Below, piece by piece: positions 18,951 through 26,710 of a DNA stretch of 30,092 bases. The first letter of the stretch is position 1. Each line of letters starts with the position of its first letter. The DNA comes from a virus: UHGV virus genome UHGV-0106597; one strand, written 5' to 3'. The notes below the pieces were generated by a model. It was given only the letters and a program-made list of their open reading frames with translations. It was not told where the DNA came from and searched no databases. The position numbers were made by a program, and so were the translations under genes.

Positions 18951-19123
18951 TGTCAGGAGTCCTGAATAGTGATTAGAGGAGTCACATGTCGGCATCAGTT
19001 TCCCGACGATGCGCATCCTCCGCCATCAGTCCCGGATGGCTTATCACTGACACAACAGCACCTTAGCGAATCGCGGGGCGCGACTCAGTAGCCTTGCCGT
19101 GTATTCATCACGGCGAGGTATTC
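18951..19123. promoter_or_regulatory. Divergent late promoter region between O and P (expected Ogr-dependent promoters)
   Basis: Inferred from gene arrangement only; I could not find a clean TGT-N12-ACA activator box. Confidence 0.35.
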
Positions 19124-20896
19124 ATGACCATCACCACAGACACCACTCTTTTACACGACCCGCGTCGTCAGGCGGCGCTGCTGTACTGGCAGGGATTTTC
19201 CGTGCCGCAGATTGCCGCCATGTTGCAGATGAAACGCCCGACGGTGCAGAGCTGGAAACAGCGCGACGGCTGGGACAGCGTTGCCCCCATCAGCCGTGTC
19301 GAAATGAGTCTGGAAGCGCGGCTGACCCAGCTCATCATCAAACCGCAGAAAACCGGCGGTGACTTCAAGGAAATTGACCTGCTCGGACGCCAGATTGAAC
19401 GACTGGCACGGGTCAACCGTTACAGTCAGACCGGCAACGAGGCAGACCTTAATCCGAACGTCGCTAACCGCAACAAAGGCGGGCGTCGCAAACCGAAAAA
19501 GAATTTTTTCAGTGACGAGGCCATCGAAAAGCTGGAGCAGATTTTCTTTGAGCAGTCTTTCGAGTATCAGTTGCACTGGTATCGCGCCGGGCTTGAGCAC
19601 CGCATCCGCGATATCCTGAAATCCCGCCAGATTGGCGCGACGTTTTATTTTTCCCGCGAGGCGCTGCTGCGCGCCCTGAAAACCGGTCATAACCAGATTT
19701 TTCTGTCGGCCAGTAAAACGCAGGCGTATGTGTTCCGCGAATACATCATCGCCTTTGCCCGTCTGGTTGACGTTGACCTGACCGGTGACCCGATTGTCCT
19801 GGGCAATAACGGCGCAAAACTGATTTTTCTCGGCACCAACTCCAACACCGCGCAGAGCCATAACGGCGACCTGTACGTCGATGAGATTTTCTGGATCCCG
19901 AATTTTCAGGTACTGCGTAAGGTGGCATCAGGTATGGCCTCACAGAGTCACCTGCGATCGACCTATTTCTCCACTCCGTCCACGCTGGCGCACGACGCCT
20001 ACCCGTTCTGGTCGGGTGAACTGTTCAACCGGGGACGCGCCAGCGCCGCCGAACGCGTGGAAATCGACGTCAGTCATAACGCCCTTGCCGGTGGGCTTCT
20101 CTGTGCAGACGGCCAGTGGCGGCAGATTGTCACCATTGAGGACGCCCTGAAAGGTGGCTGCACGCTGTTCGACATTGAACAGCTCAAACGCGAAAACAGC
20201 GCCGACGATTTTAAAAACCTGTTCATGTGTGAATTTGTTGACGACAAGGCGTCGGTGTTCCCGTTCGAGGAGTTGCAACGCTGCATGGTCGACACGCTGG
20301 AAGAATGGGAAGACTATGCACCCTTTGCCGCCAATCCGTTCGGCTCACGTCCGGTATGGATTGGTTACGACCCGTCACACCGTGGCGACAGCGCCGGATG
20401 CGTGGTGCTGGCACCGCCGGTGGTGGCCGGTGGCAAATTCAGAATACTTGAGCGTCACCAGTGGAAAGGCATGGACTTTGCCACTCAGGCTGAATCCATC
20501 CGCAAACTCACCGAAAAATATAACGTCGAATACATCGGTATTGATGCCACCGGCCTCGGTGTCGGCGTGTTCCAGCTCGTGCGCTCGTTCTATCCCGCCG
20601 CGCGCGACATCCGCTACACGCCGGAAATGAAAACCGCAATGGTGCTCAAGGCAAAAGACGTTATCCGCCGTGGCTGTCTGGAATATGACGTCAGCGCCAC
20701 CGACATCACCAGCTCGTTTATGGCTATCCGCAAGACCATGACCAGCAGCGGACGCAGCGCCACCTATGAGGCCAGCCGCAGCGAGGAAGCCAGCCACGCC
20801 GACCTCGCCTGGGCGACCATGCACGCCCTGTTAAATGAGCCACTCACCGCCGGTATCAGCACCCCGCTGACATCCACCATTCTGGAGTTTTACTGA
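19124..20896 (+). CDS. P: Terminase ATPase (large) subunit P
   Basis: Product starting MTITTDTTLLHDPRRQAALLYWQGFSVPQIAAMLQMKRPTVQSW...; GAGG ribosome-binding site upstream of ATG 19124. Confidence 0.9.
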   Translation: MTITTDTTLLHDPRRQAALLYWQGFSVPQIAAMLQMKRPTVQSWKQRDGWDSVAPISRVEMSLEARLTQLIIKPQKTGGDFKEIDLLGRQIERLARVNRYSQTGNEADLNPNVANRNKGGRRKPKKNFFSDEAIEKLEQIFFEQSFEYQLHWYRAGLEHRIRDILKSRQIGATFYFSREALLRALKTGHNQIFLSASKTQAYVFREYIIAFARLVDVDLTGDPIVLGNNGAKLIFLGTNSNTAQSHNGDLYVDEIFWIPNFQVLRKVASGMASQSHLRSTYFSTPSTLAHDAYPFWSGELFNRGRASAAERVEIDVSHNALAGGLLCADGQWRQIVTIEDALKGGCTLFDIEQLKRENSADDFKNLFMCEFVDDKASVFPFEELQRCMVDTLEEWEDYAPFAANPFGSRPVWIGYDPSHRGDSAGCVVLAPPVVAGGKFRILERHQWKGMDFATQAESIRKLTEKYNVEYIGIDATGLGVGVFQLVRSFYPAARDIRYTPEMKTAMVLKAKDVIRRGCLEYDVSATDITSSFMAIRKTMTSSGRSATYEASRSEEASHADLAWATMHALLNEPLTAGISTPLTSTILEFY

Positions 20897-21930
20897 TGAG
20901 CAAGAAAAAAGGGAAAACACCGCAACCTGCGGCAAAAAAAATGACCGCCAGCGCCCCGAAAATGGAGGCATTCACCTTTGGTGAGCCGGTGCCGGTACTC
21001 GACCGCCGTGACATTCTGGATTACGTCGAGTGCATCAGTAACGGCAGATGGTATGAGCCGCCGGTCAGCTTTACCGGTCTGGCAAAAAGCCTGCGTGCTG
21101 CCGTACATCACAGCTCACCGATTTACGTCAAACGTAATATTCTGGCCTCGACATTTATCCCGCATCCGTGGCTTTCCCAGCAGGATTTCAGCCGCTTTGT
21201 GCTGGATTTTCTGGTTTTCGGTAATGCGTTTCTGGAAAAGCGTTACAGCACCACCGGTAAGGTCATCAGACTGGAAACCTCACCGGCAAAATATACCCGC
21301 CGTGGCGTGGAGGAGGATGTTTACTGGTGGGTGCCGTCCTTCAACGAGCCGACACCTTTCGCGCCCGGCTCCGTGTTTCATCTGCTGGAGCCGGATATTA
21401 ATCAGGAACTGTACGGCCTGCCGGAATATCTCAGCGCCCTTAACTCTGCCTGGCTGAATGAGTCGGCCACGCTGTTCCGCCGCAAGTACTACGAAAACGG
21501 CGCACATGCCGGATACATCATGTACGTCACCGATGCCGTGCAGGATCGCAACGATATCGAAATGCTTCGCGAAAACATGGTGAAGTCGAAAGGCCGCAAC
21601 AACTTTAAAAATCTGTTTCTCTATGCACCACAGGGGAAAGCCGACGGCATTAAAATTATCCCGCTCAGTGAAGTCGCAACGAAGGACGATTTTTTTAATA
21701 TCAAAAAAGCCAGCGCCGCTGACCTGCTGGACGCGCACCGCATCCCCTTTCAGTTGATGGGCGGCAAGCCGGAGAACGTCGGGTCGCTGGGTGATATTGA
21801 GAAAGTGGCAAAGGTCTTTGTCCGCAATGAGCTTATCCCGTTACAGGACAGGATTCGGGAAATAAACGGCTGGCTCGGTCAGGAGGTCATCCGCTTTAAA
21901 AACTACTCACTGGACACTGACAACGGCTGA
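20896..21930 (+). CDS. Q: Portal protein Q
   Basis: 344-aa product, P2 gpQ-like, start overlaps P stop. Confidence 0.9.
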   Translation: MSKKKGKTPQPAAKKMTASAPKMEAFTFGEPVPVLDRRDILDYVECISNGRWYEPPVSFTGLAKSLRAAVHHSSPIYVKRNILASTFIPHPWLSQQDFSRFVLDFLVFGNAFLEKRYSTTGKVIRLETSPAKYTRRGVEEDVYWWVPSFNEPTPFAPGSVFHLLEPDINQELYGLPEYLSALNSAWLNESATLFRRKYYENGAHAGYIMYVTDAVQDRNDIEMLRENMVKSKGRNNFKNLFLYAPQGKADGIKIIPLSEVATKDDFFNIKKASAADLLDAHRIPFQLMGGKPENVGSLGDIEKVAKVFVRNELIPLQDRIREINGWLGQEVIRFKNYSLDTDNG

Positions 21931-22281: not shown

Positions 22282-23178
22282 CTATGATTTCGACACAACT
22301 ATTTTCCCCAAATCAAAACTAAATTCGACATCCCCATTTACGATATTTTCATTTGTCACATGCTCATCAAAAAGGTCACTAACATCATACCCCGACTGAA
22401 ACACTGGGCTCATGATAGCCACGTCGGTGAATGGCTCTTTTTCATGTGTTATATAATATTGACCATAAACATTTGCAGATTTATCTGCATCATTAAGACT
22501 AAGGACTGTTTTTGCTTTGACTTCAGGCATCAGAGAAAAATCAATATTATTCAACAAACACAGTAAGATGCCTGCTATTGCTCTCCTGTTATTATCAAGC
22601 GGCATCAAGTCCACCCCTGGAATCTCCTTCCGAAGCAATATTTTCAGCTCATTAAATAAAGAGTCGAACTTAATTGCGTCAGAACAATTGAGTAACGACA
22701 AAGCTTCATTAATCATTCGCCCTTCATTGGAACCAATTTCTGGTGTTAACTTACAAACACCATCATTAACAATATACGATTTCTTGTTATTAAGCTTCTT
22801 CCTCGCTGTAATTACCTGCCCCCCCTTTAAGTTTAACTTCTCCTTTAAAAACTCATCACTGAACATTCTTAATTGCAGTCTGATTAATGTAGGTAAGTAT
22901 TTCGGGTATTCATTTAACTCTGGTTTAACAGCATGCTTATCGCGTCCAAATTTTAAACTTAATAACAAATGATTCCTCAGCATGATATCCTTTATCTCGC
23001 CTTGATCTCTCCGATGATTATGGGCAACAAAACTCCCAATTTCAAAAATACACTTGGGCGCACTCGGCAACTCACGGGCCGTAACAAAAAGAACATCAAT
23101 ATCACTATCAGTGAAACTCCCATCCTTTAATCTTCTCAACACTCTCTCTATTCTTGAGATTGCTTTACTTTTATTCAT
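22282..23178 (-). CDS. Hypothetical protein (298 aa) encoded in an AT-rich accessory island occupying the P2 old/tin slot; function unknown
   Basis: Long uninterrupted ORF with ATG start; roughly one-third GC by eye versus a GC-rich prophage backbone; no family recognised. Confidence 0.7.
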   Translation of the reverse strand: MNKSKAISRIERVLRRLKDGSFTDSDIDVLFVTARELPSAPKCIFEIGSFVAHNHRRDQGEIKDIMLRNHLLLSLKFGRDKHAVKPELNEYPKYLPTLIRLQLRMFSDEFLKEKLNLKGGQVITARKKLNNKKSYIVNDGVCKLTPEIGSNEGRMINEALSLLNCSDAIKFDSLFNELKILLRKEIPGVDLMPLDNNRRAIAGILLCLLNNIDFSLMPEVKAKTVLSLNDADKSANVYGQYYITHEKEPFTDVAIMSPVFQSGYDVSDLFDEHVTNENIVNGDVEFSFDLGKIVVSKS

Positions 23179-23504
23179 GACATTCTTTCAACCTTAATCA
23201 ATATTTAATTTAAATAAACCATTCTCATACGCCAACCATACCTGTGACACCTGACAAACCAAATAAAAACAAAGGTACAGCGGATATTGGTATGTACAGC
23301 TATATTACACATAAACTCATGTTAGTAACATAAGATCTTCTTGTGAATATTTGTAATTTATTAGTTCACCAACATTAATCTTTCCAACCGTTATAAATCC
23401 AATCATATGCTGATACTCAAATGATGGCCAACTACCACCTCTCGCTGTTCGTTGTTCCCTCCAGCAGCACTGGAAGCATGTTTCAGTACTGCTGGGGTTT
23501 TCTA

Positions 23505-23708
23505 TCAACAACGTGGTAGCAGTGCAATTTTAGACTGTTCTATATCGTTAAACCGCACGTAATTATCCCGGACTATTTCGGCACACCCGACCAACTCGTC
23601 GGGCGTCAGATTTTCGTTGACCATAATCTGCTGTAGACGGTGAACAATAGCCATCAGCTTGATATTTTTAGTGTTATGTTGCGGTATCTCGCCTGGTATT
23701 CTGTGCAT
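23505..23708 (-). CDS. Hypothetical small protein (67 aa)
   Basis: ATG at 23708..23706 overlaps the stop of the upstream gene (TAATG); no family recognised. Confidence 0.4.
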   Translation of the reverse strand: MHRIPGEIPQHNTKNIKLMAIVHRLQQIMVNENLTPDELVGCAEIVRDNYVRFNDIEQSKIALLPRC

Positions 23709-24163
23709 TATCCAAGCCACCCGTTTTGCTTTGCACGCTCAATCTGTTCATCTGAATAGTTCCATGCTCCATCCGTGGCAACCATTGCCCCGCCAGACAT
23801 CCCCGTCTCTGGTTCATACATAACAGCAAGGCCGAGCTGATGCATAATTTCATGATTAATTCTGAATACCAGACCACGCTCACTAAGTTCTTTCCAGTTC
23901 ACAATCTCATATGCGCCTGTATTAAGCAGCTCAATACTTAGCAAGACATAATCTTCCAGCCAGTCTGACAGGTCAGTAACATCTGTTATCCGGGCTTCAA
24001 CCTTTCGCCCCGTATACACACCCTGCCCCCATTCATGCAAAATCAACGTGTCTCCGCGCTCATAATTACGGTCATTTTTCCGAAACTCTGCGCGTTTCTT
24101 TCCTTCCAGCACAAGGTCGAAATATTTTGCGTGCAGCTTTACCTCGTGAATTTTTGCCATCAT
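23708..24163 (-). CDS. Hypothetical protein with N-terminal ASCH/PUA-like (DUF3850-like) domain and a C-terminal HExxH motif
   Basis: MMAKIHEVKLHAKYFDLVLEGKKRAEFRKNDRNYERGDTLILHEW fits the ASCH pattern; HEIMH at the C-terminus; start codons overlap the A stop (ATGATG). Confidence 0.55.
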   Translation of the reverse strand: MMAKIHEVKLHAKYFDLVLEGKKRAEFRKNDRNYERGDTLILHEWGQGVYTGRKVEARITDVTDLSDWLEDYVLLSIELLNTGAYEIVNWKELSERGLVFRINHEIMHQLGLAVMYEPETGMSGGAMVATDGAWNYSDEQIERAKQNGWLG

Positions 24164-26445
24164 GTCCACTCCATTACTGTTGAGAATCCCGGCCACTCAT
24201 CAGCGACCGGATATGTGAATTTTTTCCCGTCATAATTTACAGTCGCGCCACGCGCCAACGCCTCAAGCTCCCATCGCTGCGGCCTTATACCGTTCTGAGC
24301 AAGGTCAACGCGGATACGGGTAATTTGCATTCTTTCCGACCGGGTCAGTCTGGCCGATGGTGCAATTTCATGTGGTTTTAACGGGCTTCCGTTTCTTTGC
24401 TGACGATTTGGCGTTCTCAGGCCGTGTTTTAATGCGCCCCTGAGCGCCCTCACAACCTCCGGGTCATTCCATTCGATAACACCGTCATCAACCAGATTAA
24501 GCACTGCTGCGGCGTGCTCAGAAGGTGTGGGAGCCGGTAACGAAGTATCACAACCGGTGACCTTTCCACAGTTATTGACAGGACTCCGAGGCGCGGCGAT
24601 GCCGCTTTTTAAAGTCAAAGGCTCAACGACCGGAACTTTCGGCACAATGCGCCAGTCCGTCGTTCTGGTGATATGAATATGACGCGCGCCGAGATGCGGC
24701 GCGTAAATGCCGACCACTCTCTCGACTTCTTCCTCGTACTCGTTAACGTCATCCGACGGGCTACGGGCAACCCTGACAGTCTGACAATCGCGTGGGACAT
24801 TTGCCCCGCCCTGCGCGCTGATATACAACGCAAAATCACCACTGTCTGCGGCGGCGCGTGCAGCCTCGACGCGTTCGTCAAACTCATCAGCAATGCTGAC
24901 GCCGCGAGGCAATTTGCGTAGTTCACGGTAAGCCCCCATTGTCGGCAGACCAACCGTTTTAAATTGCGGGATACGCCACGTTGACGCCCATGCGGTAACA
25001 GCCGCTGCAGTGTCTTTCAGCGGTCTGCCGGTATCGTTATCGAGCTGCCCATCCAGTGCATAGCCGTCGATATTTTTTGAGATGTATTTCGCGATATACC
25101 CCGCAGCACCGCCCCGATTAAGATGTTTTGCCTGAAAACGGTTTCGCGCAGCTCCTCTTTCGTCGCCATCCTCTTTGAGCGCGTAGCGACGCATGATTTC
25201 GATAATCTGGTTACGCTGGCGTGGATTACAAAAAAGCATCATATGCCAGTGCGGCGTTCCGTCGTGGTGTGGCTCGACGACTCGCAAACCGTAGACCTGT
25301 AAATCATTATCCTTGAATGCCGTGCGCATCAGGCTCCAGATACGGCAGAGATAACGCTGCGCATCCTTTGGATTAAATGCCTCATCGTTCCAGCCGTGAT
25401 TTAGCTGGACGGTTTTACTTTCGCCTTTTCCAACCTGACGTGTCGGGTGATACTTTGACGGCGCGGTCAGCGTGATAAACATCCCCACATCACCTTCTGC
25501 GGCGGCGTAACGCTCAATACCGGCAATGGTGTTCATCAGCTCCATCCGGCGAATTTCAGGATTAGAAATACTGCCCATCACCTTACTGATAAGGTCGATG
25601 CGCTCGCCTGTTTCCCTGTTTTCGAGATCACACGATTTAAGAAATTCCAGATTTGCCTGGCGGCGTGCACGCACATCACGAATGGCATGTTTACTGGCAT
25701 AAGGAGAACGGTCTTTATTGACCTCCCCGACAGCAATCAGTAACGCCTCATGCCAGCGCATACGCTGGCCTTTAAGCTGACTAATCCACCACTCATCGTT
25801 AAACAGACGGGCAATGGCAGAATATGCCTGCCTCGTGGTCATCTGTCCTTTACGGTATTTTTTCCAGTAGAGAGGGGAAATATTGAAAGCACGTGCAGCG
25901 CCAGCAACATGACCATAGAGGTGAGCCTGCGCCTCATCCGTAAACAGCGATTCTTTTTCGCCATGCGCATCCACCCAGGCATCGCTGAGTTCCTCATACA
26001 TCATGAAAAGCTGCGATGAGATACGGGCGGCAAACTTTTTCAGCTCCTTGTCATTCATTCCCGGCAGGCGCGCATAGTGGTCACGCTCAGCCAGAAACAG
26101 CATCGACGCGTCGGTGTTCATTTCATGGCGCTGATTCACACGCTCAATGCGCGGCCATAAACGACGCTGAAAAGTGGATGTGAGGAAATAAAACCCGTGC
26201 ACCGGGCTTTTATTGCGCCGGATGTAGTCATAGCGTGACGTAAACAGCGAGCGCAAAAAGTAAGGCAGGCGGTTAATCGTGGATAAAACACCTTGCACCT
26301 GACGCATCTCGTCACGTGTAAGGGGTCTTTCGCGCCCGACAGCCTCGCGTGGCGCGTTCCATGCATAAGCACCGGTAAACGCCTTACCGGTGCCTGCAGC
26401 AAATGCTGACGGAGGGACAAAACGCCCGGAGGCTTTAACGGCCAT
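24160..26445 (-). CDS. A: Replication initiation protein A (rolling-circle endonuclease)
   Basis: About 760-aa product with HUH-like GTPHWHMM and tyrosine-containing GYIAKYISKNIDGY motifs; ATG at 26445 preferred over the TTG at 26487. Confidence 0.85.
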   Translation of the reverse strand: MAVKASGRFVPPSAFAAGTGKAFTGAYAWNAPREAVGRERPLTRDEMRQVQGVLSTINRLPYFLRSLFTSRYDYIRRNKSPVHGFYFLTSTFQRRLWPRIERVNQRHEMNTDASMLFLAERDHYARLPGMNDKELKKFAARISSQLFMMYEELSDAWVDAHGEKESLFTDEAQAHLYGHVAGAARAFNISPLYWKKYRKGQMTTRQAYSAIARLFNDEWWISQLKGQRMRWHEALLIAVGEVNKDRSPYASKHAIRDVRARRQANLEFLKSCDLENRETGERIDLISKVMGSISNPEIRRMELMNTIAGIERYAAAEGDVGMFITLTAPSKYHPTRQVGKGESKTVQLNHGWNDEAFNPKDAQRYLCRIWSLMRTAFKDNDLQVYGLRVVEPHHDGTPHWHMMLFCNPRQRNQIIEIMRRYALKEDGDERGAARNRFQAKHLNRGGAAGYIAKYISKNIDGYALDGQLDNDTGRPLKDTAAAVTAWASTWRIPQFKTVGLPTMGAYRELRKLPRGVSIADEFDERVEAARAAADSGDFALYISAQGGANVPRDCQTVRVARSPSDDVNEYEEEVERVVGIYAPHLGARHIHITRTTDWRIVPKVPVVEPLTLKSGIAAPRSPVNNCGKVTGCDTSLPAPTPSEHAAAVLNLVDDGVIEWNDPEVVRALRGALKHGLRTPNRQQRNGSPLKPHEIAPSARLTRSERMQITRIRVDLAQNGIRPQRWELEALARGATVNYDGKKFTYPVADEWPGFSTVMEWT

Positions 26446-26710
26446 ATGAGCCAAAAGCCTCTGAACAACGCTTGCTGAGTTGCTCAACCTGCGCGTTTAA
26501 ATCAGCAAAAGACTTTGCGCTTCCGGTCAGAATATCGTGATGCATCAGGCCGGAAACGAGCTGGCTTAATTTCGGGTAATAACCAACCACCGCCAGCCAT
26601 TCCTGACCGGCGTTTTTACCGCTTTCCGCTCTCTTTTTCTCGTGGAGAATAAACTGGAAGCTGTCACTGGTAACGACATAACGTTCGCCAATTTCAATAC
26701 GAATACTCAT
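26435..26710 (-). CDS. Hypothetical early-operon protein (position of P2 orf83)
   Basis: 91 aa, assigned by position only. Confidence 0.5.
   Translation of the reverse strand: MSIRIEIGERYVVTSDSFQFILHEKKRAESGKNAGQEWLAVVGYYPKLSQLVSGLMHHDILTGSAKSFADLNAQVEQLSKRCSEAFGSYGR

Follow-up and report, generated by a model that had tools for sequence, protein, structure and literature searches.

Among the early genes of P2, a classic model phage, orf91 is one of those still uncharacterised. In P2 (NP_046796, 109 aa) and in the Yersinia phage L-413C (NP_839888, 150 aa), it lies directly after gene A. In phage WPhi, the gene is split by a frameshift into orf91 (93 aa) and orf92 (64 aa; locus L002, 3662-4177); either the sequence contains an error here or the gene has become a pseudogene. 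No orf91 was found after gene A in phage 186, where the tum operon is located instead, indicating that not every member of the family carries the gene. A single preprint refers to P2 orf91, in passing and without data, as "an essential protein", and searches of the literature on orf91, phage DUF3850, and DUF7415 yielded no functional data.

The ASCH superfamily, to which the N-terminal half of the orf91 protein belongs, includes the YqfB-type N4-acylcytidine amidohydrolases of E. coli, whose catalytic residues are Lys21, Thr24, Arg26, and Glu74 (PMC9599836). In phages, ParB-CTPase-DUF3850 fusion proteins that are paired with ParA have been described (10.1101/2025.10.10.680097), and we infer from this description that DUF3850 takes the place of a DNA-binding module in these fusions.

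The stretch of DNA analysed here (UHGV-0106597, 30,092 nt; referred to as the window) is a P2-like (Peduovirus) prophage of E. coli, in an orientation that is inverted relative to the P2 map. The following features were used in the analysis:

19094-20896, plus strand: terminase gene P
20896-21930, plus strand: portal gene Q, followed by the cos region
22282-23178, minus strand: low-GC cargo gene encoding 298 aa, matched by phrog_29586 over its full length
23505-23708, minus strand: conserved 67-aa ORF (phrog_11386, E 4e-39)
23708-24163, minus strand: orf91-type gene encoding 151 aa (ATG 24163-24161, TAA 23710-23708)
23933-24151, minus strand: DUF3850/ASCH (PUA-like) domain, aa 5-77 (PF12961, E 5.6e-18; PF04266, E 3.9e-11)
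23744-23908, minus strand: DUF7415 core, aa 86-140 (PF24187; Pfam match aa 87-129)
23840-23854, minus strand: HEIMH motif, aa 104-108, in a predicted helix of aa 98-110
24158-24172, minus strand: start region as read from the sequence (GGAG 24172-24169, ATGATG 24163-24158)
24160-26487, minus strand: gene A, encoding the Phage_GPA rolling-circle replication initiator (PF05840, E 2e-123)

The remaining genes of the early operon lie on the minus strand of the window, beyond gene A. The orf91-type gene is already known and annotated, and it joins two known but uncharacterised domains.

Gene layout and identity of the orf91-type gene

A first-pass annotation, which gave no strand, had described an ORF immediately after gene A that started within an ATGATG overlapping the A stop codon and that lay at the edge of the accessory hotspot between gpA and gpQ. 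The ORF is real and is encoded by the minus strand, and its proposed start was seen directly in the sequence. The start region reads GGAG-TGGAC-ATG-ATG-GCA, in which the GGAG lies 5 nt upstream of the first ATG and the TGA stop codon of gene A (24162-24160) falls inside the ATGATG. The second ATG (24160) is the RefSeq/PGAP start and gives a protein of 150 aa; this choice of start codon is the sole ambiguity. At its other end, the TAA of orf91 overlaps the ATG of the 67-aa ORF (23708-23706) as TAATG. The mechanically called ORF for gene A has a TTG start and encodes 775 aa, with the RefSeq start 14 codons later (761 aa). In two E. coli strains (hits H94 and H96), prophages that otherwise match the window identically carry an IS903B element at a site between 22000 and 24400.

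The 151-aa ORF is a full-length homolog of phage P2 orf91, an already catalogued gene that is ordinary in E. coli P2-type prophages. It shared 91% identity with L-413C orf91 over its whole length and 96% identity with P2 Orf91 over aa 1-75 and, as in both of these phages, it directly follows gene A in the early operon; its position and its sequence identity together mark it as the positional ortholog of P2 orf91. RefSeq holds an entry that is identical to this protein (labelled "DUF3850 domain-containing protein"), and PHROG 1812 matched the whole protein (E 5e-82). DNA of orf91 was present in 380 of 5426 complete E. coli genomes and was full length in 346 of these. The two-domain architecture, which the first-pass annotation had called an unusual combination, is that of PHROG 1812 and represents the normal, full-length orf91 of L-413C-type phages, as found in these 346 genomes. 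Close E. coli copies of the gene showed too few differences for their overall dN/dS (~0.3) to be informative.

It is the reference P2 protein that departs from this form. P2 Orf91 (NC_001895, 30316-30645; locus L004, 4317-4646) stays in register with the protein of the window up to residue 75, after which 34 unrelated residues lead to tin/old. It retains the ASCH half; the gene is replaced from codon 76 onward, where the tin/old cassette begins, and the protein lacks DUF7415. A six-frame HMM scan showed that DUF7415 is absent from the entire reference P2 genome. The divergence after residue 75 thus places one recombination boundary of the hotspot exactly at the junction of ASCH and DUF7415, and the absence of DUF7415 from reference P2 indicates that this half is dispensable for growth of P2.

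Other rearranged forms of the gene were also observed. In E. coli E686, where the gene is annotated as a pseudogene, the boundary lies at the ASCH/DUF7415 junction, as in P2. In WPhi, orf92 extends into the start of the 67-aa ORF. Several database proteins combined part of the orf91 gene with Cox, B, A, tail, or baseplate sequence (P0014, P0016, P0032, P0035, P0038, P0039, and P0040); these chimeras evidently arose by deletion in P2-like prophages undergoing decay. In strain SRY206, the DUF7415 half was joined to an integrase remnant.

The ASCH/DUF3850 and DUF7415 halves

Profile searches confirmed the earlier assignment of the N-terminal half to an ASCH/DUF3850 domain of the PUA-like clan. 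Pfam DUF3850 (PF12961) matched with 65.3 bits (cut-off 22.9), far beyond chance, and ASCH (PF04266) with 44 bits (cut-off 21.2), and a search of the PDB with the orf91 protein profile identified the solved DUF3850 structure 3IUW (E 1e-13, residues 3-79). The residue pattern on which the assignment had been based was found as F15..L19..G21.K23..E26.R28KNDR32....G37D38.L40.L42.E44. It includes the octapeptide GxKxxExR, reportedly the defining motif of ASCH domains, in the form G21-K22-K23-R24-A25-E26-F27-R28. In a full-length AlphaFold model, based on a 10-sequence alignment, this half was beta-rich and had a pLDDT of about 80.

Of the catalytic residues of the YqfB-type amidohydrolases, the Lys and Arg of the octapeptide are kept in orf91 (K23 and R28). 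However, the nucleophile Thr24 corresponds to Glu26, and the segment that carries Glu74 is missing from the 77-residue domain. The YqfB-type match to the orf91 profile reached an E-value of only 0.9. Since the alignment contained no counterparts of the catalytic Thr and Glu, YqfB-like amidohydrolase activity was rejected for the ASCH half. Judged from its GxKxxExR motif and from the place of DUF3850 in the ParB-CTPase-DUF3850 fusions, this half would bind nucleic acid or a nucleotide rather than act as a YqfB-type enzyme.

The C-terminal half matched Pfam DUF7415 (PF24187) with 54 bits (cut-off 27). DUF7415 is a 55-residue alpha/beta module that is found only in phages and prophages. When residues 78-151 of orf91 were used as the query in an exhaustive HMMER search of 1.84 billion cluster representatives, only 194 proteins were retrieved at E<=0.001, and a word-index homolog search with the C-terminal half returned only close relatives. 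Across 144 representatives of the family, N103 and G111 are invariant, G97, H108, and S123 are conserved at 97-99%, P109 and G121 at 94%, D131 at 87%, and E105 at 83%; N103, G111, G97, H108, and S123 are all present in orf91.

In the full-length AlphaFold model the C-terminal half had a pLDDT below 50, and a model of the domain alone, based on a 42-sequence alignment, was used instead. This model was confident (pLDDT 91.9) and consisted, in order, of a beta hairpin, a short helix, a long helix (aa 98-110) that contains HEIMH, a second beta hairpin, and a final helix. A structure search against solved structures revealed no resemblance to any solved fold, and Foldseek matches in the viral structure library BFVD were confined to DUF7415 phage proteins. 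Winged-helix DNA binding was considered and set aside: the few Foldseek matches to MarR or forkhead proteins had E-values of 5-8 and TM scores of 0.25-0.3, and the domain is acidic (net charge of the C-terminal 74 aa about -6 by sequence count).

Distribution of DUF7415 and proposed role of the orf91 protein

Among the 144 DUF7415 representatives, 48 were stand-alone proteins and 96 carried the domain at the N-terminus, at the C-terminus, or in the middle of a larger protein. The domain occurred in 903 of 50,697 cultured-phage records, mostly from virulent T4-like and T5-like phages, which have no gpA; T5-like phages often carried two copies. In Jiaodavirus T4-like phages, exemplified by Klebsiella phage KpV477 (locus L008, 2992-3210), a 72-aa stand-alone DUF7415 protein is encoded between nrdD and nrdG (anaerobic ribonucleotide reductase and its activase), overlapping both genes.

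Gene neighbourhoods were compared in a sample of 102 DUF7415 loci (22 from species genomes, obtained as exact-pattern matches, and the best 80 of 212 from IMG/VR), which is biased towards close, P2-like relatives of the orf91 query. In this sample, gpA was directly adjacent to DUF7415 in 51 loci; in 33 of these DUF7415 lay downstream of gpA, with 20 fused to ASCH, and in 18 it lay upstream. In a further 14 loci gpA was within 3 kb, which brought the number of loci with gpA within 5 kb to 65. Another 22 loci lay between gpL and gpX, within the late operon of P2-like phages of the Pseudomonas type, and 15 contained neither gpA nor a late-operon marker. Beside gpA, the fusion partners of DUF7415 were DUF5405 (to which P2 Orf83 belongs), a Lar restriction-alleviation domain, a DEDD exonuclease, and DUF551; elsewhere DUF7415 was fused to a dATP/dGTP pyrophosphohydrolase and to a thymidylate (dTMP) kinase. 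These partners may reflect nothing more than the chance joining of neighbouring genes within a compact operon.

Our main reading, to which we assign a probability of about 0.6, is that the gene is the complete form of P2 orf91 and encodes an ASCH binder joined to a portable DUF7415 module, that it acts as a non-essential early accessory gene, that its HExxH motif is accidental, and that the nearby cargo is unrelated to it. Judged from its domain families and its genomic context, the protein is likely a non-essential early accessory protein that binds nucleic acid or a nucleotide. Gene A, orf91, and the 67-aa ORF are read in this order, through their tight overlaps, from the early operon of Peduovirus-type prophages. 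DUF7415, because it occurs alone or fused to many different small early proteins, would represent a portable add-on, probably with a protein-binding or targeting function, that is aimed at a host factor or at a process involving nucleotides or nucleic acids. P2-, T4-, and T5-like phages have hosts in common, but not their replication machinery; the presence of DUF7415 in all three makes such a host factor or process a likelier common target than gpA. If the description of P2 orf91 as essential holds for the ASCH half, "non-essential" covers DUF7415 only. The conserved polar residues N103, E105, H108, S123, and D131 could also form a catalytic or metal site, in which case DUF7415 would be an enzyme and not an adaptor.

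In an alternative that we consider unlikely, the orf91 product would be a direct partner of gpA at the rolling-circle origin; ASCH might, for instance, bind the displaced strand or primer RNA, with DUF7415 contacting gpA or the host replisome. This replication-accessory alternative is consistent with the overlap of the orf91 start with the A stop codon, with the adjacency to gpA of half of the sampled loci, with the rearrangement of DUF5405, DUF3850, and DUF7415 around gpA in P2-like and 186-like prophages, and with the DEDD exonuclease fusions of DUF7415 encoded by some early operons. However, reference P2 replicates without DUF7415, phage 186 has no orf91 after gene A, the frequency of gpA neighbours comes from a sample biased towards P2-like relatives, and 22 of the 102 loci belong to the late operon. 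Most cultured phages with DUF7415 are, moreover, T4-like or T5-like and have no gpA. The same records, together with the late-operon loci of Pseudomonas-type phages, weakened the candidacy of DUF7415 as a gpA-specific partner.

A role in counter-defence or host takeover, as an early inhibitor or decoy, appeared rather unlikely as well. Under this alternative, the acidic DUF7415 would block a host factor, such as a host nuclease or a restriction component, and ASCH would sense or sequester a modified nucleotide or nucleic acid. It would fit the negative charge of the C-terminal half, the dispensability of DUF7415 in laboratory phage P2, and the expression of orf91 from the early operon. In addition, the majority of DUF7415 members stand alone, at 57-90 aa, and are encoded by prophages and by the early regions of virulent phages, and one P2-like lineage encodes a fusion of DUF7415 to a Lar restriction-alleviation domain directly upstream of gpA. 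Against it, orf91 had no match among known defence or anti-defence proteins, including those in PADLOC, no literature on DUF7415 was found, and the acidity of the domain is moderate in comparison with known DNA mimics. On the basis of the PADLOC result, identification of orf91 as a known defence or anti-defence protein was rejected; NCBIfam also returned no match for orf91.

In a broader and likewise improbable version of this idea, DUF7415 is an unrecognised portable effector or adaptor of phages of Gammaproteobacteria that, together with an ASCH sensor, makes orf91 an early counter-defence or host-takeover factor. The module would then target a host factor shared by P2-, T4-, and T5-like infections, e.g., via a surface formed by N103, E105-x-x-H108, S123, and D131. 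DUF7415 has no known fold relative, is shuffled among many small early proteins around gpA and in T4/T5-like phages, and is missing in P2, which makes it a simple experimental entry point.

Hotspot edge, HExxH motif, and comparison with known systems

In the window, the variable defence hotspot starts only past the 67-aa ORF, which is the last conserved gene; the placement of orf91 near the edge of the hotspot by the first-pass annotation was borne out. Homologs of the 67-aa ORF shared 62-85% identity in P2-like prophages from E. coli, Enterobacter, and metagenomes, in which they directly followed an orf91 homolog, and this succession was found in every compared locus except those of P2 and L-413C. 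Gene A, orf91, and the 67-aa ORF form a tightly overlapping trio that was kept down to about 53-58% protein identity. The 67-aa ORF, which belongs to no Pfam family, was more conserved than orf91 in distant P2-like prophages. GC content was about 0.52-0.58 in gene A but only about 0.44-0.48 across orf91 and the 67-aa ORF; a drop followed beyond the 67-aa ORF, at about 23400-23500, and values from ~23400 downward were 0.30-0.39. Breakpoints of phage-to-phage homology clustered at 23316-23542.

Beyond the 298-aa gene of the window, at least five other cargo sets were found to follow orf91. These included two different pairs of hypothetical genes, a set comprising a ParB-like gene, a hypothetical gene, and a cytosine methylase gene, a 330-aa gene in L-413C, and tin/old in P2, as well as others in Enterobacter and a metagenome. 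The variety of cargos after the same genes, the drop in GC content, and the clustered breakpoints indicated that the conserved flank consists of gene A, orf91, and the 67-aa ORF and that the cargo is an independent insert. These results settle which genes border the P2 defence hotspot on the side of gpA, where cargo comes only after the trio. Mining strategies that treat everything between gpA and gpQ as cargo consequently take in two conserved genes, orf91 and the 67-aa ORF.

The 298-aa gene itself was always located in this hotspot, has a GC content of about 0.35, and is preceded by an AT-rich spacer of 326 nt. It had no match in Pfam, NCBIfam, or PADLOC, and is a candidate uncharacterised defence gene; PADLOC also returned no match for the 67-aa ORF. 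Joint action of orf91 with this cargo had been proposed in the first-pass annotation. In the co-occurrence analysis of the 5426 E. coli genomes, the cargo was present in 25, all of which also carried orf91, as compared with 380 genomes with orf91. A functional pair was rejected on these counts, since orf91 is a homolog of a P2 gene that shows no linkage to the cargo and is followed by other cargo sets elsewhere.

The cargo had been proposed as the partner of a zinc metallopeptidase-like site, formed by HExxH and the acidic stretch after it, in a two-gene accessory system. Both sequence elements are present, HEIMH at aa 104-108 and YEPE at aa 116-119, and the location of HEIMH within the predicted helix would place H104 and H108 on the same side. 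In addition, HEIxH was invariant among 10 full-length orf91 homologs, down to 49% identity, and orf91 does lie close to the hotspot. However, position 104 is His in only 10% of the 144 DUF7415 representatives (Arg in 38%, Lys in 17%, and Thr in 12%), and the full HExxH occurred in 9 of the 144. In a six-frame translation of the window, HE..H was encountered 4 times in 60,180 residues, which is not above chance. No peptidase family in Pfam matched orf91 at E<=0.1, the DUF7415 model showed no structural match to any protease, and P2 does without the whole domain. The low conservation of H104, the frequency of HExxH by chance, and the absence of a peptidase family match leave the metallopeptidase reading unsupported, and the lack of a protease fold completed its rejection. 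HExxH is probably an accident of the close ASCH-DUF7415 subfamily. Largely refuted by the conservation data, and with its cargo partner missing from most orf91-bearing genomes, the peptidase proposal can be considered very improbable.

The likeness of orf91 to zincin metallopeptidases thus comes down to a literal HExxH in a predicted helix with acidic residues after it; orf91 differs from them in its unconserved first His, in the absence of a profile or fold match, and in a domain size of ~55 residues. The structure 3IUW (annotated as "activating signal cointegrator", 83 aa) was matched across the whole N-terminal domain of orf91. Whereas 3IUW is a stand-alone domain, the orf91 protein has the extra C-terminal DUF7415.

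For the C-terminal half, a parallel was provided by the DUF5405-DUF7415 proteins of 186-like prophages. In one 186-like prophage of E. coli, genes for a zf-DksA protein, an ASCH protein (98 aa), a DUF5405-DUF7415 protein (157 aa), and gpA follow each other in this order, with each gene overlapping or abutting the next. In four loci of 186-like prophages (L023, 3408-6393; L019; L026; L084), the ATG of the 157-aa DUF5405-DUF7415 gene overlaps the preceding stop codon, and in two of them (L023 and L084) the preceding gene encodes an ASCH protein. The recorded gene calls start this gene internally, at 57-63 aa, which leaves an apparent gap of 280 nt that in fact codes for the DUF5405 half. These proteins have in common with orf91 the DUF7415 module, a location in the early operon, and a tight coupling to gpA, and a separate ASCH gene can precede them. 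They differ from orf91 in that DUF7415 is joined to DUF5405 instead of ASCH and in that they are encoded upstream, rather than downstream, of gpA.
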